From assembly GCA_018396635.1 (NCBI GenBank), contig JAGTQE010000005.1, positions 11,325 to 75,324 on the forward strand: DNA of 64,000 nucleotides, written 5' to 3'. The stretch's first letter is position 1; each line of letters starts with the position of its first letter. The notes beneath the pieces were generated by a model, which saw nothing but the letters and a program-made list of their open reading frames with translations, made no database searches and had not been told where the DNA came from. This stretch comes from Candidatus Bathyarchaeota archaeon (GTDB lineage: Archaea; Thermoproteota; Bathyarchaeia; Bathyarchaeales; DTEX01). The position numbers and the translations under genes are program-made. Positions 2,881 through 12,070 of the stretch are shown here, one piece after another.

Positions 2881-4395
2881 TTATATACTCCATAGAGACT
2901 CTAGATGTTTCCTAATATGCTTGGAGATAACTTCATAGTATTCTTCCTCCCTATCGAGTAAAACTCTCTTAATCCTATCTCTGAAGAGCCATCTTCCATC
3001 TTCCCCTCTAGCCGATAATACTGAGCCGAATGTCACATGAAGAATCTGTCTCGCCTTAGGGTTGTCAAGATATGTCTCCTCAAGCTTCCCGTCTGTGACT
3101 TCTTCTGGCTGCCGGATCTGTGATGGGTCTGCGCTAGTATAATATGATGCCCTATCCTCCCCGAACCTTTGGATACTAAACTTAACAATCTCGCGGAATA
3201 GACTTGGATCGTGCCTCGCTATTATGCGTAGAGACTCTAGATAGCTGGTTCCAGCAGTCTTTAGGTGGATTATGTCGCCAGCTAATCTACCCATTATTGG
3301 GTATATCGAGAATTTATCGCTGCCGGAGTGTATGCTTAGCTTGTATGGTCCAAAGTTTCTGGCTATTAACGCGTGGATCTGGAACGTCCTCTCAAACTCC
3401 CCTAAATCGCCTATATAGTCGACGGCCTTCTCAAATCTGCCAACAAACCTCAGGGCTAGGCTTTGTAAGCTTATTCCTAGCCTCTTAAGCTCCAATGCTA
3501 TAAATAAGTGTTCGATTGGTTTGGTCGGGGTTTCCGTCTCATCAACGGATAGCTCAAGATCGTATCTTCCACCCTTAAACAGGTCATCTAGGAGCTCCTT
3601 CAATTTTAGGGTATGAGCGATTGCAGCAGAATACTTTACAGAAGCTCTGAGGAGATCCTCCCTTAAGAAACATAGTTCCAGGACGACTCTTCCAGCGGGA
3701 TCTTTAACTTCAAAAGTTTTCCCTAAATATCTTTCGAGGATCTCTCTCCCACTACACCTTAAAATTCCCCATGGTAAACGATTAAACTTCTCCTCTAAGA
3801 CATGGATTGGATAATTGTCTGCACCATTATCAACGTACTCTGATGGATCTATTGTATACATTGTGAAGCCCGCCGCAAACGCCTCCTTAACGTCCTCCTC
3901 AGTCTTCAAGTGATCAGCGTCGGCTGCAAAGCCATTCCGATAACCCTCTTGAAAAACCGCCCATGTAACATCATCTATAACTTCTTGAGGTGATCTTAGC
4001 GTGCGCTTCATCTCCCGCACCGACTGCTGGGCGAGGACTGGGAAGAACCTCAAATCACGTACAGCGCGTATATGTCCAGGTGTAGCTAATCCAATGCGAT
4101 CGCCTGTTCCAATGGCGGGCGTTAAACCTATTGGTATTGGCTTGGTATATGGGAAATGTTCGCGTATTTCGGCTGCGTTGTGAGGGTTGCATGGACAAAT
4201 CCTGTAGGTTAAGGATTTATCGAGGGCGCCCTCCTCCTCATGGAGAAAGTTAGCTAAGAATTTTGGGGGATTCTCTGAAGGATATATTATGACGAGCTTC
4301 CGCTCATATCCATCCCTAATCAAGAAGAAGAGAGCGTCATCCTTAATTGAGATTGAAGAATCGTAGACCTTCACCCTGCGTCCCCGTTCCTCCAT
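2881..4395 (-). CDS. tagaturonate/fructuronate epimerase (UxaE)-like protein
   Basis: 504-aa ORF. The size and the GTGDRIGLATPGHIRA motif match my memory of the UxaE family. It lies 9 nt upstream of the glycosidase-like gene on the same strand, and a uxuA gene occurs elsewhere in the window. Confidence 0.5.
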   Translation of the reverse strand: MEERGRRVKVYDSSISIKDDALFFLIRDGYERKLVIIYPSENPPKFLANFLHEEEGALDKSLTYRICPCNPHNAAEIREHFPYTKPIPIGLTPAIGTGDRIGLATPGHIRAVRDLRFFPVLAQQSVREMKRTLRSPQEVIDDVTWAVFQEGYRNGFAADADHLKTEEDVKEAFAAGFTMYTIDPSEYVDNGADNYPIHVLEEKFNRLPWGILRCSGREILERYLGKTFEVKDPAGRVVLELCFLREDLLRASVKYSAAIAHTLKLKELLDDLFKGGRYDLELSVDETETPTKPIEHLFIALELKRLGISLQSLALRFVGRFEKAVDYIGDLGEFERTFQIHALIARNFGPYKLSIHSGSDKFSIYPIMGRLAGDIIHLKTAGTSYLESLRIIARHDPSLFREIVKFSIQRFGEDRASYYTSADPSQIRQPEEVTDGKLEETYLDNPKARQILHVTFGSVLSARGEDGRWLFRDRIKRVLLDREEEYYEVISKHIRKHLESLWSI

Positions 4396-4525: not shown

Positions 4526-6106
4526 GTGATGGACAAACAATTATTTTTAATGTCGACGGAAGTATGGATCCAGCCAATAGATCCGCTTGGGCATATGGCG
4601 TTATCCTTCCTATTCTCCCTAGCACCCATACTGCTGCTTATACTTCTCCTATGCCTCTTTAGGAAGCCTGGGTGGGTGGCGGCGTTAGCATCCTCTGTGG
4701 TGTGCTTTGTCATCTCAGTCACCGTATATGGGGCTCCTATGCAAGTGGCTCTCTTAAGCTACGCTTATGGGCTGGTTTTTGGGCTTTGGCCCATATCTTG
4801 GATAATTCTAAACGCCATATTTCTGTATAGGGTGTCTGAGAGGTGCGGCTGCATAGAGAGCCTTTCTAAGTGGATTGGGGAGAACATGCCTAACGATAGG
4901 GGGCTATATGCCCTCTTAATCTCATTCCTCTTCGGAGGGCTTATAGAGGGAGTCGATGGATACGGTTTTCCAATAGCCATATCGTCCACACTGCTCGCTG
5001 ATCTAGGGTTTAATCCCATTGACGCCGTATGCATATCACTTTTGGCAAACACCGTCACGGTTCCATTCGCAGGCTTAGGTGTACCTATAGAAACCCTCGG
5101 CGTAGCGTCGGGGCTAGATGTCAAGGACATATGCCTATACCTCTCATCCCACCTAGCGATGATATCAGTGGCCACGGCGCCTCTAATCATTCGCATGGCG
5201 TCTGGGCGGGGAGCCGCGAGCAGGGCATATGAGGCTAGCTTTGTGGCCGGGCTATCGTTGGGAGCAGTCATTTACCTAGTGTCTGCCTATATCGATCCGC
5301 GCATATCGGGGATACTTGCACCCCTAGCCTCCATGATACTAACAATAATCTATGTTAGGGTTAGGTTTAAGGCGAAGATTAAGTCTACAGGTTTCAGGGG
5401 CTGGCTTCCATGGATAATTGTCTCAGCACTTATGGGAACAGTCAGCTTCATTGGGCTGCATAAATTGTTTGCTGTAAAGATTTATGTTCCGGGTTTGCAT
5501 GGAAGAGTCTTCATACCACTATATAGTGTTGCCTACAGCGCCATATATGAGATACAGCCATTAGCCCATGGAACACTGGCCTTAATCTCCGCCATAATCG
5601 TGGCCCTCATCTTTAACTTGAAGCCATCAGTAATGCTGTGGCTCTACATAGATTCTCTAAGGAGGATGAAGAACGCATTTCTAACCATAGCGGAGATACT
5701 GGGCTTAGCCTTCCTCATGAACTACACGGGCCTATCCCTAACACTAGGATACTCTCTGTCACATGTTGGGCCGCTGTTCCCAGCCCTCTCAGGCTTCATA
5801 GGTTGGATTGGAACCTTTGTCAGCGGTTCGGAGACGGGCTCAAACGCCCTCTTCGGAAAACTTCAGAGAATAGCAGCCGAGCTCTCCGGCCTCCCACCCC
5901 ACTTAACTACAAGCCTTAACGCTGCAGGAGGAGTTCTGGGGAAAATCGTCTCGCTCCAGAGCATAGCGATAGGCCTATCGGCGACTGGGCTGAGGAGGGA
6001 GGAGGGTGTAATCTTGCGTAGGCTGATCGGCTATAGCCTAGCCCTAACGCTCATGCTGGGTTTGATGGGATATATACAGGCATATATCTCAACTCTGAGC
6101 ATATAA
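4526..6106 (+). CDS. L-lactate/glycolate permease family (LctP) transporter
   Basis: 526 aa and polytopic. It has a GSETGSNALFGKLQ signature like the LctP/LldP family. The start may be ATG 4529 or a later Met. Confidence 0.75.
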   Translation: MMDKQLFLMSTEVWIQPIDPLGHMALSFLFSLAPILLLILLLCLFRKPGWVAALASSVVCFVISVTVYGAPMQVALLSYAYGLVFGLWPISWIILNAIFLYRVSERCGCIESLSKWIGENMPNDRGLYALLISFLFGGLIEGVDGYGFPIAISSTLLADLGFNPIDAVCISLLANTVTVPFAGLGVPIETLGVASGLDVKDICLYLSSHLAMISVATAPLIIRMASGRGAASRAYEASFVAGLSLGAVIYLVSAYIDPRISGILAPLASMILTIIYVRVRFKAKIKSTGFRGWLPWIIVSALMGTVSFIGLHKLFAVKIYVPGLHGRVFIPLYSVAYSAIYEIQPLAHGTLALISAIIVALIFNLKPSVMLWLYIDSLRRMKNAFLTIAEILGLAFLMNYTGLSLTLGYSLSHVGPLFPALSGFIGWIGTFVSGSETGSNALFGKLQRIAAELSGLPPHLTTSLNAAGGVLGKIVSLQSIAIGLSATGLRREEGVILRRLIGYSLALTLMLGLMGYIQAYISTLSI

Positions 6107-6131
6107 GTCAAAACATTCGGTTTAGAGTTAA

Positions 6132-7376
6132 TCATGACGCAAATATCTTTATGAGGGCCTCCAGGTCCGCTTCTATCTCAACTGGCTTAGGGAATTGCCT
6201 TAAAACAATATCTGGATCTTTCAGTCCATGCCCGGTGAGTATGCAGACAACAGTCTCATCCCTATCTATTAGCTTCATGTCCGCAAGCTTTATCAATCCA
6301 GCTATAGCCGCCGCGCTTGCCGGCTCAACGAAAATGCCCTCTCGCCTAGCTAAAAGCGCCTGGGCGCTCAGTATCTCCTCATCGGAGACCGTTTCAGCCA
6401 GTCCGCCGGACTCCTTAATGGCTTTAACTGCCTTCTTCCAGTTAACCGGCGAACCTATCCTTATGGCTGTTGCAATGGTTTCCGGCCTCTCAACAAACCT
6501 CATCTCCTTTAAACCCCCCTTAATGAAGTTAGCTATTGGCGCAGCACCTTCAGATTGTATTCCAATCATTTCGGGAAGCTTCTCTATTAAGCCAGCCATA
6601 TACAGCTCCTTGAAGCCCTTCCATATGGCGCTGATATTGCCAGCATTCCCAACGGGAACTATAACCTTATCTGGCACCTTATGGCCCATCTGATCCCATA
6701 TCTCGAAGGCTATTGTCTTCTGCCCCTCAAGCCTATACGGATTTATCGAGTTCAATAAATATATTGGTTGCGTTAAGCAAAGCTCCTCAACGATTCTAAG
6801 AGCTTCATCAAAATTTCCCTTGACCTGAATTACCCTAGCTCCATGAATTATCGCTTGGACAAGCTTGCCGAACGCCACTTTACCTGAAGGGATTAGCACA
6901 ATGCATTCCAACCCGGCTTTAGCCGCATATGCCGCTAAGGAGGCGGAAGTGTTACCTGTTGAGGCGCATGCAACCCTCTTCATGTCAAGTTCTAGAGCCT
7001 TAGTTACTCCAACAGTCATTCCCCTATCCTTGAATGACCCGGTTGGATTCTCGCCCTCATTCTTCACATAGAGGTTCTTTAGGTTTAATTCGCATCCAAG
7101 CCTAACACACCTGTTCAGGCTTGTCCCGCCTTCGCCCAAACTCACCATTTTACTACTATCGCTTATTGGTAGCAGCTCTATGTAGCGCCAGACGGTTAGG
7201 GGTCTCGAAGCCCACCTTAGAGATATTTCAGGGCTCATTAAATCATTATTATATTCAACTGAGAGGAGTTCTCCACAGCTAGAACACTTATAAATGATTG
7301 TGTTTGGAGGAAACTCAGCCCCGCATCCTATACATTTTAGGCGATAATGCCAGGCCATAGATCTTCTCCCATTCAT
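6132..7376 (-). CDS. thrC: threonine synthase
   Basis: N-terminal Cys4 ribbon (CIGCG...CSSCG). It carries the canonical PLP lysine motif NPTGSFKDRG, then ASTGNTSASLAAYAA and the phosphate loop PVGNAGNISA. Confidence 0.85.
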   Translation of the reverse strand: MNGRRSMAWHYRLKCIGCGAEFPPNTIIYKCSSCGELLSVEYNNDLMSPEISLRWASRPLTVWRYIELLPISDSSKMVSLGEGGTSLNRCVRLGCELNLKNLYVKNEGENPTGSFKDRGMTVGVTKALELDMKRVACASTGNTSASLAAYAAKAGLECIVLIPSGKVAFGKLVQAIIHGARVIQVKGNFDEALRIVEELCLTQPIYLLNSINPYRLEGQKTIAFEIWDQMGHKVPDKVIVPVGNAGNISAIWKGFKELYMAGLIEKLPEMIGIQSEGAAPIANFIKGGLKEMRFVERPETIATAIRIGSPVNWKKAVKAIKESGGLAETVSDEEILSAQALLARREGIFVEPASAAAIAGLIKLADMKLIDRDETVVCILTGHGLKDPDIVLRQFPKPVEIEADLEALIKIFAS

Positions 7377-7467: not shown

Positions 7468-8862
7468 GTGCTTGCATGTACTGAGTGCGGGGAAAAGCTG
7501 GAGGAGGACTATCCGAGAGATAAATGCCCAAAATGTGGCGGGAAGGGCACTTTAGAGTATCAAATGGACCTTGAGGAGCTGAGGGCTGCCGAGTTTACAG
7601 GGGAGTTCTCATTCTGGAGGTATAGGGCGCTTCTCCCAAAAGTAAAGAATTATGCGACTTTACATGAGGGTGGAACTCCACTATATAAGGCTGAGCGCCT
7701 AGCAAAATATATTGGTCTCCCAAAATTATACTTGAAGGATGAAACCAGGAACCCTACAAACTCCTTTAGAGATAGGGCCGCCGCACTGATGGTTTCAAAT
7801 ATGCTAGATTTTGGCTACACAGCTGCGATATGTGCCTCAAGCGGCAATATGGGTGCATCCCTATCCGCCTACTGCGCCAGGTACGGCATAATATGTCATG
7901 TTATAGTACCCGAGTACGTTGATATGGGTAAGATGGCTCAGATGATAGTGTATGATGCTGTGATTGAGGAGTATGGTAAAACCGTTGATGAAGCGATAGA
8001 GAGGGCTGAGAAGATAGTTGAGGAGACTGGCTGGTATCAGGCCACATCAGCGCTGAATCCACTCGTCATTGAAGCACAGAAAACAGTGGCTTTCGAAATA
8101 GCCGAGCAGATAGGTGTCCCAGATGTTATTGTTGTCCCAATGGGTAGCGGGGGAACAATATACTCTATATGGAAAGGCTTCAGGGAGCTTAATGATCTAG
8201 GTAAAGTAAAGGGTATGCCAAGGCTTATTGGAGTCCAGTCGAGCGGGTGCCCGCCTATAGTTAACGCTTTCCTTGAAAGGGAGGGCGAGCAGGAAACGCT
8301 ATGGACTAAGGCCACAAGCATATTCGTCCTAAACCCATTCAAAAAGAAGCTTGCCATAAAGGCCATAAGGGAGACTGGGGGCCTCGCCCTCTCAGTATCT
8401 GACCAAGAGATGCTTGAAGCTGAGCGGGAAATTGCCAAGATGGAGGGACTATTCGCTGAGCCAGCCAGCTCCGGGACCATAGCGGCCCTTAAGAAGCTCG
8501 CTCAGGAGTCAGCCATCGGCAGAGATGAGAACGTCGTATGTATAATGACTGGGAGCGGGCTTAAGGCAACAGATGTCCTACAGGCCTTATCTAAAAAGCG
8601 TAAAATAGCCTTATTAGAGGCTGAGTTTAGCACAAAGGAGAAGATACTTCGCATAATATCGCGGAAGAAGACTTATGGATATGAGATATGGAAGGAGCTG
8701 GGCAGAGTTATGACTAAGGCAGCCATATACCAGCATCTAAACGACCTAAGGAATAGGGGCCTAATATCTGTTCAGGTGAAGGATGGGAGAAAATATTTCA
8801 CAATAACCCAGAGAGGTAGGAGGGTGCTTGCCGCCATAGACGAAGTAAAAGCACTTCTTTAG
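7468..8862 (+). CDS. threonine-synthase-like (fold-type II PLP) domain lacking the Schiff-base lysine, fused to a C-terminal PadR-like winged-helix domain
   Basis: GTG start and Zn ribbon CTECG...CPKCG. The motif reads NPTNSFRDRA, with codon AGA at 7768..7770 where thrC has Lys. It retains SSGNMGASLSAY and PMGSGGTIYS. The C-terminal ~75 aa, KKTYGYEIWKEL...IYQHLNDLRNRGLISVQVKDGRKYFTITQRGRRVL, is PadR-like. Confidence 0.75.
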   Translation: MLACTECGEKLEEDYPRDKCPKCGGKGTLEYQMDLEELRAAEFTGEFSFWRYRALLPKVKNYATLHEGGTPLYKAERLAKYIGLPKLYLKDETRNPTNSFRDRAAALMVSNMLDFGYTAAICASSGNMGASLSAYCARYGIICHVIVPEYVDMGKMAQMIVYDAVIEEYGKTVDEAIERAEKIVEETGWYQATSALNPLVIEAQKTVAFEIAEQIGVPDVIVVPMGSGGTIYSIWKGFRELNDLGKVKGMPRLIGVQSSGCPPIVNAFLEREGEQETLWTKATSIFVLNPFKKKLAIKAIRETGGLALSVSDQEMLEAEREIAKMEGLFAEPASSGTIAALKKLAQESAIGRDENVVCIMTGSGLKATDVLQALSKKRKIALLEAEFSTKEKILRIISRKKTYGYEIWKELGRVMTKAAIYQHLNDLRNRGLISVQVKDGRKYFTITQRGRRVLAAIDEVKALL

Positions 8863-8896
8863 ACTTGATATGCCAGTTAACAGCAATTTTTAAATA

Positions 8897-8940
8897 ATAG
8901 TTTAGTTACAACTATACTAATCAACTTATAACTATACTAA
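8897..8940. promoter_or_regulatory. candidate operator: imperfect palindrome ATAGTTTAGTT-AC-AACTATACTAA plus an extra AACTATACTAA half-site
   Basis: AACTATACTAA occurs at 8910..8920 and 8930..8940. The palindrome at 8897..8920 matches the reverse complement of the 11261..11284 site at 22/24 positions. Its right edge is 28 nt from ATG 8948. Confidence 0.55.
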
Positions 8941-8947
8941 TGAGGGC

Positions 8948-9481
8948 ATGCGCATGGAGAAAAGAAGGGAGAGTCTCTCCAGAAGAGTGTCATTTCTGGG
9001 AATCGCCATAGCGCTCGTATACGTGGCCACCTCCATCTCAATTCCCATGCCTAAACCATTAGGCGTCTGGCATATTGGAGATATAGCGTCATTTATCGTC
9101 GCCATATTCTTCGGCCCACTTATCGGAGCACTTGCATGTGGGGTTGGCGCAATGCTCTTTGACATATGGAATCCATTATGGGGCAGCAGTTTCATTATAT
9201 GGGCTCCGGCAACGCTTATAATTAGGGGGTTCATGGGCTTCTTGCTCGGGAAGATGAGGAAGATTATGCCGAATAAGCCCAGATTCTCAGAGATATTGGC
9301 TATGATAATTGCCTCTATTCAAAAAAATGTTTGTTACTTCCTTTACGATTACGCCCTTTTTGGATCAGTAGCCTTCTTAGATTTAATAACATTTTTCCCA
9401 TTAAGTGCACTCGACATAATTGTAGCGGTGCCGTTAATATCCTCAATACGAAAGATACTAAAAGTTGAGTATTACTGCTAG
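8948..9481 (+). CDS. ECF-transporter S-component-like small membrane protein
   Basis: 177 aa with about 5-6 TM segments. FFGPLIGALACGVGAMLFDI and APATLIIRGFMGFLLG are typical of ECF substrate-capture proteins. It is a paralogue of 11315..12070. Confidence 0.6.
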   Translation: MRMEKRRESLSRRVSFLGIAIALVYVATSISIPMPKPLGVWHIGDIASFIVAIFFGPLIGALACGVGAMLFDIWNPLWGSSFIIWAPATLIIRGFMGFLLGKMRKIMPNKPRFSEILAMIIASIQKNVCYFLYDYALFGSVAFLDLITFFPLSALDIIVAVPLISSIRKILKVEYYC

Positions 9482-9494
9482 CCGAGGTGTCATA

Positions 9495-10211
9495 ATGAAT
9501 ATAATAGATTCCCACACCCATCTCGGAACTTTCCCACTTTTCAATGTTAGTATGGATTCTGCTGAGATGATATCAATAATGAATCAATATGGAATTAAAA
9601 TCAGCGTAGTCTTCTCCTTGCCAAATGAGCTAACATTAGACGCGGTGAAAAAATATCCTGAAAGACTTATCGGTTTAGTATGGATTAATCCGCATGAGGG
9701 TAACTTAGCCCTACAAAAAGTGGATAGGGCAATTAACGAGTGGGGGTTTAAAGGGATAAAGATGCATCCCCTCCTAGATTCTTTCCTCCCGGATCAGGAG
9801 ATAGTTTATCCAGTAATGGAGAGAGCCCGAAAATATAGGGTTCCAATATTATTTCACTGTGGACATCCACCATGGTCTCTTCCATGGCACTTCAGCAACC
9901 TAGCTGAGGTATATCCCGATGTTACAATTATTTTGGGTCACATGGGCCATGGGCATATAGTGTATATTAATGGCTCGATTGATGTTGCGAGAAAACATGA
10001 AAATATAATCTTAGAAACATCAGCGATGCCCATGCATAGGAAGATTAAAGAGGCTGTTGAGAAGGTTGGCGAGGACAGAGTCATTTATGGATCAGATATG
10101 CCATTTGGGCATCCCTCATTCGAGATAAGGAAGGTCGAGGTTTCCGGTCTATCAGAGAAGCAGATTGAAATGGTTTTAAGTGTAAATGCACGCAAAATAT
10201 TTCGCTTATAA
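9495..10211 (+). CDS. amidohydrolase-family metal-dependent TIM-barrel hydrolase
   Basis: MNIIDSHTHLG N-terminus (HxH metal motif), plus later GHMGHGH and GSDMPFGH. I moved the start from the track's 9465 to ATG 9495, which sits just after the upstream stop. Confidence 0.7.
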   Translation: MNIIDSHTHLGTFPLFNVSMDSAEMISIMNQYGIKISVVFSLPNELTLDAVKKYPERLIGLVWINPHEGNLALQKVDRAINEWGFKGIKMHPLLDSFLPDQEIVYPVMERARKYRVPILFHCGHPPWSLPWHFSNLAEVYPDVTIILGHMGHGHIVYINGSIDVARKHENIILETSAMPMHRKIKEAVEKVGEDRVIYGSDMPFGHPSFEIRKVEVSGLSEKQIEMVLSVNARKIFRL

Positions 10212-10269
10212 AAGCATCGTCATGACGCAATGAAAATATTTATTTAGCGAATATTCTAGTGATTTTTGT

Positions 10270-11220
10270 ATGGCAGCTTCTTTAAAAGATGCTTTAGAAA
10301 AAACTAGTGAGTTTATCTCCACAGCCATAGGAAGGTATGGCAACAATCTTTTCGGATCCATTGTCTTTGGCAGTCTCGTTAAAGGGACCTGGCGTAAGAG
10401 CAGTGATGTCGACATAATATTACTATTTAACAAGTGTAACTACTCGAGAAGTGTGAGTTTTTACGGAGACCTAAAATTTGAGGTTTACAACATGCCTTTA
10501 AAGGTATTCTTCTCGCCTTTTTCCGGTGATGGAAAAAATCTTTTCTTTGACATGTTCCGCCTACAAGTGCTGAGAACCGGAAAGATTCTTTATGAGAGAG
10601 ACAATTTATTGAGCCAACTATTCACCAAACTGCGTGAACAAAGAATCTCCCGCAGATATTTAGATGAAGCATTGAGTAAGTTCTATAATTTAATAAATGC
10701 TGCTGAAATATACCTTAGTAGAGGGCGCATTGAGAAGGCCGAGTTAAGTTTAAGGGATTCTTCAATTAACCTTGCAAGGGCATTGTTGATGAAAATAAAT
10801 ATCCCTGAAATAAATACTCCTAGACTACTGATCCCACATTTACGTGAAAGGTCTCCAGAGCTTTATGAAGTAATTAGGGAAGTATATGGGTTAAATTATG
10901 TGGGGAGAAATGAAGCCGAGACTAGAATTAGAGAGGTTAAAGAGACGCTAAATAATATTAAACGTAGGTTTAAGAGAAATATTAGACTTAAGGGAGTTAT
11001 CGACATGGTGGAGAATGAGTTATTAAGCGCCGAAGACTGCCTAGAAGACGGCGACTACGACTCAGCAATACTACAGGCAGAATTCTCTCAATCAATACTC
11101 ATAAAAAATCCATTTATGCGTAATGAATATTGGTTACATACTTCCAAGCCGAATATTGAAAGGAGAGACATAAAAGAATGTATCGGACTTCTAAGAGAGA
11201 TTAAAGAGAAGTATTTATGA
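10270..11220 (+). CDS. nucleotidyltransferase-domain protein with long helical C-terminal region
   Basis: GSIVFGSLVKGTWRKSSDVDIILLF is a minimal Pol-beta-type NTase motif (GS...DxD). The C-terminal ~200 aa are predicted helical and contain one RLLIPH (Rx4H) match. Confidence 0.65.
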   Translation: MAASLKDALEKTSEFISTAIGRYGNNLFGSIVFGSLVKGTWRKSSDVDIILLFNKCNYSRSVSFYGDLKFEVYNMPLKVFFSPFSGDGKNLFFDMFRLQVLRTGKILYERDNLLSQLFTKLREQRISRRYLDEALSKFYNLINAAEIYLSRGRIEKAELSLRDSSINLARALLMKINIPEINTPRLLIPHLRERSPELYEVIREVYGLNYVGRNEAETRIREVKETLNNIKRRFKRNIRLKGVIDMVENELLSAEDCLEDGDYDSAILQAEFSQSILIKNPFMRNEYWLHTSKPNIERRDIKECIGLLREIKEKYL

Positions 11221-11260
11221 GAGCCCCTTGGCTAAGAAGAGCAGTTAAGAAAAAGCTTTA

Positions 11261-11284
11261 TTAGTATAGTTGTAACTATACTAA
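11261..11284. promoter_or_regulatory. candidate operator: perfect palindrome TTAGTATAGTT-GT-AACTATACTAA
   Basis: 11-bp perfectly complementary arms with a 2-bp spacer. The right edge is 31 nt upstream of ATG 11315. It shares the AACTATACTAATCA core with the 8897..8940 site. Confidence 0.6.
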
Positions 11285-11314
11285 TCAGATTCAACTGAAC
11301 ATGGAGGTTTATAA

Positions 11315-12070
11315 ATGCCTGAAGAAGCCAAAGCACCTGAGAGGAGACCGACATCATTAAACCTCATATTTGCCGCGATCTCAACTGCTCTAGTATGTAT
11401 TGCAACCATGTTCTTTAGCATGTATGTTCCGGCGACTAGGGGCTTCTTTAATATAGGTGAGTCTATGGTTTACCTATCAGCCCTACTTTTCGGGCCGTTT
11501 GTTGGGGCTTTTGCTGGCGGTGTTGGCTCAATGCTCGCCGACATACTGTTAGGCTACACGTATTACGCTCCGGCAACATTAGTGATTAAGGCATCAGAGG
11601 GCTTTATAGTCGGCTATCTGAGTAGGCGTAACCCTAAGCTTAATAGGGTTGGCTGGAGAACGCTTACAACAATCTTAGCGGTCGTTGCTGGAGCGCTATT
11701 AGCGGTCATCGGCTCAGCCTACTATAGCGGTGAAGTTGAGCTGACTTTAGGGCAAGCAATAATACCACTCTACATTCCGGAACTATTCTGGTTTATATTG
11801 AGCCTTATTGTTACAGCATCCATAATTGTGGTAGGTTTAGTCACAGAACCTGAGGCCGGCTGGACAATACTCTCACTGATGGTTGGCGGCCTTGCGATGG
11901 TTCTAGGATACTTCATCTATCAGATGTATCTTTTGTTCCCGCTCTTCGGCATAGAGGCGATAGCTGTGGCCGAAATACCAGTTAATATAGGGCAGATGAT
12001 TATAGGCTTAATAATAGCAACACCGGTGGCAAAAATCATAAAGAGGGAATTCTCCATAGGCGCCAAGTGA
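11315..12070 (+). CDS. ECF-transporter S-component-like membrane protein
   Basis: 251 aa and polytopic. LFGPFVGAFAGGVGSMLADI and APATLVIKASEGFIVGYL align with the 8948..9481 product. Confidence 0.6.
   Translation: MPEEAKAPERRPTSLNLIFAAISTALVCIATMFFSMYVPATRGFFNIGESMVYLSALLFGPFVGAFAGGVGSMLADILLGYTYYAPATLVIKASEGFIVGYLSRRNPKLNRVGWRTLTTILAVVAGALLAVIGSAYYSGEVELTLGQAIIPLYIPELFWFILSLIVTASIIVVGLVTEPEAGWTILSLMVGGLAMVLGYFIYQMYLLFPLFGIEAIAVAEIPVNIGQMIIGLIIATPVAKIIKREFSIGAK

Follow-up and report, generated by a model that had tools for sequence, protein, structure and literature searches.

A 64-kb stretch of DNA from a Candidatus Bathyarchaeota archaeon (contig JAGTQE010000005.1, positions 11,325 to 75,324), here called the window, encodes a fusion of a threonine synthase (ThrC)-like domain with a PadR-type winged helix, followed on the same strand by two genes for transporters of the S-component type (S1 and S2). 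All coordinates given below are those of the whole stretch. The fusion protein is probably an undescribed archaeal regulator of vitamin B6-like uptake. Its ThrC-like domain lacks the Schiff-base lysine, and its gene is linked in Bathyarchaeia genomes to S-component genes of the family PF07155 that are preceded by a 22-bp palindrome (consensus TAGTWWAGTT-NN-AACTWWACTA). The reading that we prefer, and that we rate a little above even, is that the fusion protein is a one-component repressor of B6-vitamer uptake and an archaeal functional analogue of the PdxR-PdxK-PdxU system.

Fusion protein

Domain analysis of the fusion protein showed a Cys4 zinc ribbon (residues 1-31), a ThrC-like domain of the fold-type II class that binds pyridoxal 5'-phosphate (PLP) (residues 64-362), a low-confidence linker (residues 363-386) and, at residues 393-455 (nt 8644-8832), a winged helix of the PadR type that scored 43.9 bits on PF03551 (cutoff 27). 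The AlphaFold2 model (pLDDT 80.6) contained the zinc ribbon, the ThrC fold, a flexible linker and the winged helix, with helices and a beta-hairpin wing at residues 389-463, and Foldseek matched it to the solved ThrC structures 6NMX, 2D1F and 1V7C at a TM score of 0.84. In the Schiff-base motif, Arg101 (codon 7768-7770) replaces the lysine, so that the fusion protein reads NPTNSFRDR where the true ThrC of the window reads NPTGSFKDR. The name pseudo-ThrC, which an earlier note made from the letters of the window had given to this protein, was therefore well chosen. Residues C4, C7, C20, C23 and R101 were invariant across 49 homologues of the fusion protein.

Alignment of 270 relatives (120 close homologues and 150 representatives of 50%-identity clusters) showed that the Schiff-base lysine was lost in 192 of the 194 relatives with a winged helix and retained in 73 of the 75 without one. 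Arginine occupied the position in all close homologues (120/120), while among the relatives bearing the winged helix it was replaced by R in 136, by L in 18 and by I in 16, with V, T, M, F and others after these. The contig of one homologue with both a winged helix and the lysine (P0122) was too short for gene context. The sensor domain thus belongs to a family of pseudoenzymes and is not a one-off. The motifs that contact PLP were near-invariant in the family, namely NPTxSFxDR, SxGN, the GxGG phosphate loop, TGxGLK and EPAS. Three positions were altered in comparison with the ThrC of the window and the Aquifex enzyme (2ZSJ): SGNT to SGNM, PYRIE to PLVIE, and GNAGN to GSGGT. By the Thermus structure, these positions are expected to bind the phosphate of the substrate, O-phosphohomoserine. 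The same columns were also variable among the sampled lysine-containing relatives, and the apparent loss of substrate-phosphate residues is suggestive only.

The fusion protein scored 213 bits on the threonine synthase model TIGR00260 (cutoff 167), and the NCBIfam model NF004170 "threonine synthase" (PRK05638, 442 positions) aligned to the whole of it, including the winged helix; the architecture is therefore already in the databases, under the name of an enzyme. Regulators of this family that lack the lysine are thus likely to carry the annotation threonine synthase systematically.

A bona fide thrC gene lies divergently from the fusion gene in the window. It stood beside the fusion gene only in the closer relatives of the window (L001, L003, L008 and a few others), a distribution consistent with a sensor that arose from a duplicated thrC. 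The window-type thrC is likely the donor of the sensor domain and itself outside the regulon. The spacer between thrC and the fusion gene held no palindrome.

Linkage of regulator, operator and transporter

In all six Bathyarchaeia neighbourhoods with homologues of 84% to 59% identity, the fusion gene was followed by a same-strand PF07155 gene, once with one gene between, and the promoter of each of these PF07155 genes held TAGTAWAGTT-NT-AACTWWACTA. The outer flanks differed among the six contigs. A pattern scan for TAGTWWAGTTNNAACTWWACTA in one genome per species (185,579 species) returned at least 119 loci, while about 9 hits were expected by chance (uniform base composition, our own arithmetic). 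Among the matches listed, 76 were from Bathyarchaeia; 74 of these 76 sites lay just upstream of a PF07155 gene, 66 had the fusion gene within 1.5 kb, and 65 had both. Since no other transcription factor gene was conserved at the loci, the palindrome was assigned to the fusion protein. We infer, on strong grounds, that the palindrome is its operator, and the link between regulator, operator and transporter is likewise strong.

Sites distant from the fusion gene were found at L037 and L103, where they preceded S1-amidohydrolase units, at L049, L068 and L116, where they preceded the gene of a 301-aa S-component, and at L105, which is described below. Judged from genome context, such sites suggest a factor that acts in trans on a small regulon.

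Five members of remote clades were sampled. Three of them (40-45% identity) adjoined PF07155 genes and carried Leu (L210), Ile (L211) or Ser (L212) at the lysine position. The intergenic region of L212 contained two tandem TATTAAAGT-N4 sites and that of L210 a GTGTAAGT-GAGT-ACTTAC palindrome, both with half-sites related to the consensus. The recognition helix A[IV]YQHL was kept throughout, remote clades included. The earlier note had placed the regulator directly upstream of operator-bearing S-component genes, and this association was recovered in homologues from 85% to 40% identity, in the Bathyarchaeia neighbourhoods as in three of the five remote clades, together with co-occurrence of fusion gene, palindrome and PF07155 gene. 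An arginine-variant homologue (L209, 41% identity) was located at 6001-7326 of CP015193.1, a complete genome of 1.96 Mb whose gene content resembles that of Thermococcales. Its neighbours there are an aCPSF1-like gene on one side and a gene of the amino-acid-kinase family on the other; no adjacent S-component gene and no matching palindrome was seen at this locus.

Gene layout and operators of the window

The five plus-strand open reading frames (ORFs) and both operators were found where the earlier note had placed them. The features are as follows.

6132..7376, minus strand: thrC, bona fide threonine synthase (TIGR00260, 373 bits against a cutoff of 167; SFKDRG intact)
7468..8862, plus strand: ThrC-PadR fusion gene, putative regulator (Pfam PALP 259.8 bits and PadR 43.9 bits)
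8887..8897, plus strand: AT-rich TATA-like box TTTTTAAATAA, predicted promoter of the S1 operon, read from sequence; abuts operator A1
8898..8919, no strand: putative operator A1, TAGTTTAGTT-AC-AACTATACTA, 1 mismatch to the consensus; conserved in L001
8918..8939, no strand: putative operator A2, TAATCAACTT-AT-AACTATACTA, degenerate; 2-nt overlap with A1, 20-bp register
8948..9481, plus strand: S1, short S-component-type transporter, 177 aa (PF07155, 72.7 bits)
9495..10211 (ORF listed from 9465), plus strand: metal-dependent hydrolase or decarboxylase of the Amidohydro_2 family (Pfam, 100.3 bits)
10270..11220, plus strand: Pol-beta-type nucleotidyltransferase with a C-terminal helical domain (Pfam Polbeta 36 bits, and NTP_transf_2)
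11248..11261, plus strand: box GAAAAAGCTTTAT, resembling a TFB recognition element (BRE) and TATA box, predicted promoter of S2, read from sequence; arrangement conserved
11260..11285, no strand: putative operator B, perfect palindrome ATTAGTATAGTT-GT-AACTATACTAAT, 26 bp, with the 22-bp core at 11262-11283; orthologous site present at all loci examined
11315..12070, plus strand: S2, long S-component-type transporter, 251 aa (PF07155, 117.8 bits), with an internal insertion of about 75 residues

Regulation in the window thus concerns two units: S1-amidohydrolase-nucleotidyltransferase, whose genes are spaced 13 and 58 nt apart, and S2. Operators had been noted earlier ahead of both S-component genes, and both were recovered, the one at 11260-11285 perfect and the one at 8898-8919 imperfect; the first operator proved to be a tandem pair (A1 and A2) and not a single site. 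The exact 11-mer half-site occurred 4 times in the 64 kb, always within the S1 and S2 promoters. The 20-bp tandem register (about two helical turns) was common to the S1 promoter of the window, L001, L091 and L096, and this spacing suggests cooperative binding. Alignment of 75 Bathyarchaeia promoters showed a conserved purine-rich BRE-like GAAAAG; after it comes a TATA-like box (CTTAATA, TTTTAA), which extends with its final bases into the palindrome, and the start codon usually lies within the next few tens of bases. The 22-bp site therefore covers the region between the TATA box and the expected point of transcription start, which is a classic position for a repressor site in Archaea.

Metatranscriptome contigs from a related strain spanned thrC, the fusion gene, S1, the nucleotidyltransferase gene and S2, and gave no start sites; the genes are therefore expressed. 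One of these contigs (run X14) linked position 11044 back to 10197 ("goes back 848") within the nucleotidyltransferase gene, which may stem from misassembly or from a rearrangement in a related strain. A scan of the window with Rfam found no riboswitch and no other RNA family, and RNA-based control was dropped as an explanation.

Transporters and co-transcribed genes

Both transporters passed the PF07155 cutoff of 26.7 bits. When all PDB sequences were searched, the only match of S2 (E 1.7e-11) and the only match of S1 (E 1.9e-4) was 4HZU_S, the PdxU2/HmpT protein of Lactobacillus brevis, and the structures of RibU gave no match to S1 or S2 at E<=1. On the RibU NCBIfam model S1 and S2 scored 17.8-27.8 bits against a cutoff of 99, and FolT and TIGR04002 were also below their cutoffs. 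PdxU and PdxU2 are both members of PF07155 (PMC9997740), and PdxU2/HmpT holds pyridoxamine (PMC4860826). Glu41 of its binding site is conserved as Glu in S2 and as Asp in S1, whereas the position of its His84 is taken by Lys in S2 and by Arg in S1. Further differences are the insertion of about 75 residues in S2 relative to the PdxU2 chain, the restriction of the similarity mainly to the N-terminal half, and the lack in the window of a gene for the module of the energy-coupling factor (ECF) transporters. The earlier note had stated that EcfA and EcfT were missing from the window: no ABC-ATPase gene was found there (no Walker A hit and no in-frame LSGGQ), which upholds the first part, while EcfT was not separately excluded. 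No ABC ATPase was seen beside the Bathyarchaeia loci, and a shared module may lie elsewhere in the genome; in the remote clade member L210 the S-component gene is followed by an ABC_tran gene.

Most of the 76 Bathyarchaeia loci among the matches listed had an S2 orthologue directly downstream of the fusion gene and its palindrome, and S2 is the core regulated gene of the family. The amidohydrolase and the nucleotidyltransferase are lineage-specific additions. The earlier note had suggested a ligand that controls uptake and salvage genes; the conserved linkage to S-component genes supports its reading, with the caveat that the amidohydrolase and nucleotidyltransferase are accessory genes of this lineage only. 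The unit of palindrome, S1 and Amidohydro_2 gene recurred in L037, L103 and L114 at 63-72% identity, with amidohydrolase orthologues of 70% identity behind S1. The amidohydrolase ORF was listed from TTG 9465, but homology indicated ATG 9495 (MNIIDSHTHLG), which is probably the actual start. Its closest solved relatives were LigW 5-carboxyvanillate decarboxylase, gamma-resorcylate decarboxylase and ACMSD, which are non-oxidative decarboxylases of ortho-hydroxy aromatic acids; that the enzyme acts on a pyridine carboxylate, 4-pyridoxate for example, is conceivable but pure speculation. The nucleotidyltransferase had no match in the PDB, and orthologues at the locus were found only in L001, L060 and L096.

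The commonest co-transcribed gene encoded a protein of about 335 aa of the aminoimidazole ribonucleotide (AIR) synthase family, labelled HypE or "AIR synthase family". It lay directly downstream of the S-component gene in about 42 of the 76 loci among the matches listed (L013 to L127), and blastp across the loci recovered 46 ORFs of this type. The protein lacked the C-terminal Cys of HypE and scored below the cutoffs of HypE, ThiL, SelD and PurM. A homologue search was set aside as a clue to its function, as none of the 120 best database hits fell below 82% identity to the L104 copy and all were close Bathyarchaeia relatives named AIR synthase or HypE; the protein is thus very highly conserved. 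Further co-transcribed genes encoded an NAD-kinase-like protein, paired with a GDPD phosphodiesterase, or a ComB-like phosphatase. Neither pdxS, pdxT nor an AIR-synthase-family gene was found in the window.

Proposed mechanism and ligand

In the proposed mechanism, the ThrC-derived domain would have lost catalysis through the change of lysine to arginine, kept a PLP-shaped pocket and become a ligand sensor, and the C-terminal PadR-type winged helix would bind the 22-bp palindrome. Binding would probably be as a dimer, because ThrC enzymes dimerise. We infer that the bound protein blocks the basal transcription machinery and so represses the uptake and salvage genes of both units, since the palindrome abuts the TATA-like box and covers the expected start of the S1 and S2 units. 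PLP or another B6 vitamer phosphate would be the most likely ligand, acting as co-repressor, and the S-components would import B6 vitamers in the manner of PdxU and PdxU2. A lysine-less, PLP-shaped pocket, unable to fix the cofactor covalently, would suit reversible sensing of the free cofactor pool.

In one Bathyarchaeon (L105) a perfect palindrome with the same promoter geometry preceded pdxS (SOR_SNZ, 341 bits) and pdxT. Neither gene was seen near the other fusion loci. The earlier note had suggested a B6 vitamer or an amino-acid-derived compound as ligand; pdxST of L105, the PdxU2/HmpT match and the PLP motifs give B6 independent but thin support. On this circumstantial evidence, the chance that the ligand is a B6 vitamer is about even, and most of the remaining probability goes to hydroxymethylpyrimidine (HMP) or thiamine compounds and to amino-acid-derived ligands. 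A wider proposal, which is tentative and which we hold to be rather doubtful, is that proteins joining ThrC to a winged helix-turn-helix (wHTH) domain are widespread archaeal sensors of free PLP, with a non-covalent, lysine-less pocket, that repress B6 uptake and sometimes pdxST, and that the AIR-synthase-family partner is one of the alternative enzymes of B6 salvage that, by comparative genomics, are still to be discovered.

Several results weigh against control of B6 uptake by the fusion protein. No palindrome was found upstream of the fusion gene itself, and two of the five remote homologues had no S-component neighbour. A set of 80 metagenomic pdxS loci, including relatives at 84-85% identity, showed no palindrome within 4 mismatches, and pdxS was rejected as a general member of the regulon; the pdxST link comes from a single genome. 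To our knowledge no member of the AIR-synthase family phosphorylates an alcohol, so a role of this partner in B6 salvage is not obvious, and the NAD-kinase-like, GDPD and ComB-like partners are specific to no vitamin. Points that favour thiamine belong here too and are given with that alternative below.

As an observation apart from the palindrome, the three nearest metagenomic relatives of the L105 pdxS gene (L128, L129 and L130, 84-85%) shared, about 90 nt upstream of pdxS and in place of the palindrome, an element GAGAAAACTTAAATTTGYCTG...GTTGTGTTCGTTAT...TGTTTGTCGTGATGGT, which may be another pdxS regulatory signal.

Alternative explanations

The same regulatory logic could serve a ligand of the thiamine pathway (HMP phosphate (HMP-P), HMP diphosphate (HMP-PP) or thiamine diphosphate), with the S-components importing HMP or thiamine-related pyrimidines and the amidohydrolase processing a degraded pyrimidine. 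HMP is a close structural analogue of the B6 vitamers, and HMP-P mimics PLP without the aldehyde and could fit a lysine-less PLP pocket. The linkage of thiL points to thiamine: in L049, L068 and L116 the gene of the regulated 301-aa S-component is followed by a true thiL (270 bits on TIGR01379, cutoff 184). This was seen in one lineage only, with thiL as the second gene after a gap of 48-69 nt. The AIR-synthase-family partner is distantly related to ThiL but reached only 90-94 bits against the same cutoff. The nearest solved S-component was originally named HmpT and predicted to transport hydroxymethylpyrimidine, yet pyridoxamine was shown to be held by it (PMC4860826). None of the 76 sites among the matches listed preceded thiC, thi4, thiD or thiE, whereas one preceded pdxST. 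A thiamine-pathway ligand is considered unlikely on balance. Much the same low probability is given to a sensor that reads a metabolite of an amino-acid pathway (O-phosphohomoserine, threonine, homoserine or a PLP-amino-acid adduct), with S-components importing an amino-acid-derived nutrient and the thrC neighbourhood being functional. The ThrC origin of the sensor domain and the divergent thrC of the window and its relatives fit this explanation, as does L212, where the regulated S-component gene and an aminotransferase gene diverge from one promoter region; but thrC was adjacent in only about 10% of the loci among the matches listed, all closest relatives of the window, the thrC-fusion spacer is without a palindrome, the positions expected to bind the substrate phosphate are altered, which is suggestive only, and those PF07155 members whose substrate is known carry vitamins.

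It is improbable that the palindrome is the operator of another regulator, such as RbkR or another wHTH protein, with the fusion gene as a mere conserved neighbour and the S-components as riboflavin importers of the RibU type. PF07155 is named for riboflavin S-components, and RbkR governs ribU in several archaeal lineages through palindromes of 16-20 bp (PMC5397151). The Thermoproteales RbkR motif, AAACT-N2-AGTTT, has its half-sites oppositely oriented, however, and the published RbkR motifs differ from the palindrome. S1 and S2 fell far below the RibU cutoff and matched the structure of PdxU2, not RibU; no rib gene lay behind any of the 76 sites among the matches listed, and the fusion gene was the only transcription factor gene that travelled with the site, even in remote clades with an altered palindrome. 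Least probable of all, and hardly to be expected, is a bifunctional enzyme-regulator like RbkR that still makes threonine or a related product. The TIGR00260 score above the cutoff and the database name of threonine synthase would agree with such activity, but the Schiff-base lysine is Arg in every close homologue and R, L, I, V, T, M or F across the family, and a normal thrC is encoded next door.

Other pattern matches and neighbouring genes

Pattern matches in Streptococcus and Hespellia had no fusion or S-component homologue nearby; they were rejected as members of the system and treated as coincidental. The remaining non-archaeal matches, in Acidobacteriota and other taxa, likewise came with neither gene. 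In Streptococcus spp. (L027, L033, L034, L045, L102 and L118) an identical 22-mer, TAGTAAAGTTATAACTTTACTA, lay in the divergent promoter between a regulator of the XRE/HTH_3 type and a Gfo/Idh/MocA-like oxidoreductase, and is probably the operator of that XRE regulator, unrelated to the archaeal system. In Hespellia stercorisuis (L021, L069, L076 and L109) the palindrome formed the centre of a longer inverted repeat, AGGGACAGGT...CAATTGGGGACG-TAGTAAAGTTxxAACTTTACTA-CGTCCCCAATTG..., which was present on at least 4 contigs and looks like a repetitive extragenic palindromic (REP) element or a miniature inverted-repeat transposable element (MITE). The variants TAGTTAAGTTxxAACTTAACTA and TAGTTTAGTTxxAACTAAACTA recurred in many metagenome-assembled genomes of Acidobacteriota (Solibacteraceae, Bryobacteraceae and Terriglobia; L010, L012, L014, L025, L026, L032, L058, L072, L088, L098 and L106). 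No fusion or S-component homologue was found near these sites, and the variants suggest an unrelated conserved operator or repeat.

The nearest homologues of the window proteins were all from Bathyarchaeia, and the stretch is contained in hot-spring metagenomes. The window also carries genes of uronate catabolism (the tagaturonate epimerase UxaE at 2881-4395, and UxuA), a lactate permease (4526-6106), genes of branched-chain amino-acid biosynthesis and a methylene-tetrahydromethanopterin dehydrogenase (MTD, E 4e-113).

Comparison with known systems

In the literature searched, neither a ThrC-wHTH regulator nor an archaeal regulator responsive to B6 or PLP was described, and we know of no vitamin B6-responsive regulator in Archaea. 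Bathyarchaeia are abundant uncultured archaea of sediments and hot springs, and their need for vitamins shapes how they interact within communities. Gaps in knowledge are acknowledged for B6 transporters of prokaryotes and for alternative B6 kinases (PMC9997740). The module offers as widely conserved candidates a regulator, a 22-bp operator, at least 3 transporter subtypes and a co-regulated enzyme. Many proteins labelled threonine synthase are lysine-less pseudoenzymes fused to DNA-binding domains, which matters for annotation and for metabolic models of Bathyarchaeia. If the proposal holds, the family of PLP sensors would be a convergent counterpart of MocR/PdxR and would govern the first B6 regulon in Archaea. 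Should the CP015193.1 genome be that of a cultivable strain, this strain could serve as a model in which to study the family genetically.

The fusion protein shares its fold (TM 0.84), its zinc ribbon and its cofactor motifs with ThrC enzymes (TIGR00260; 2ZSJ, 1UIM and 6NMX), as in the ThrC of the window, and differs from them in the missing catalytic lysine, the changed positions where substrate binding is expected and the added DNA-binding domain. Its winged helix is above the Pfam cutoff of the PadR family (PF03551) and has the YGY motif and a conserved recognition helix. In canonical PadR proteins, which respond to phenolic acids or drugs, the wHTH is N-terminal and a short dimerisation helix forms the C-terminus, whereas the winged helix of the fusion protein stands at the extreme C-terminus, behind a sensor of 370 residues.

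The bacterial PdxR regulators are of the MocR type, which is absent from Archaea, and control pdxST, pdxK and pdxU (PMC5320631). PdxR of Firmicutes and Actinobacteria, for example PdxR-PdxKU of Streptococcus pyogenes, resembles the fusion protein in joining a sensor derived from a PLP enzyme to a winged helix, in a regulon of a PF07155 S-component (PdxU), salvage genes and sometimes pdxST, and in having the regulator gene beside the transporter (PMC5320631, PMC11619246). It differs in its N-terminal GntR wHTH and lysine-bearing aminotransferase domain of fold-type I, while the fusion protein has a C-terminal PadR-like wHTH and a lysine-less domain of fold-type II, and no GntR or Aminotran_1_2 Pfam hit. 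PdxR is mainly an activator that is switched off by PLP (PMC5320631), whereas the operator position of the fusion protein suggests repression. The resemblance is convergent and not homologous. RbkR is likewise an archaeal one-component regulator that joins the fold of a vitamin-pathway enzyme to a wHTH and uses lineage-specific palindromes, sometimes in tandem, before the gene of an ECF S-component (PMC5397151). RbkR is still an active kinase, however, and differs in fold, wHTH family and motifs; no riboflavin-kinase domain was found in the fusion protein with Pfam. The fusion protein thus belongs to neither the PdxR nor the RbkR family, from which it is set apart by its folds, wHTH type, domain order and motifs.

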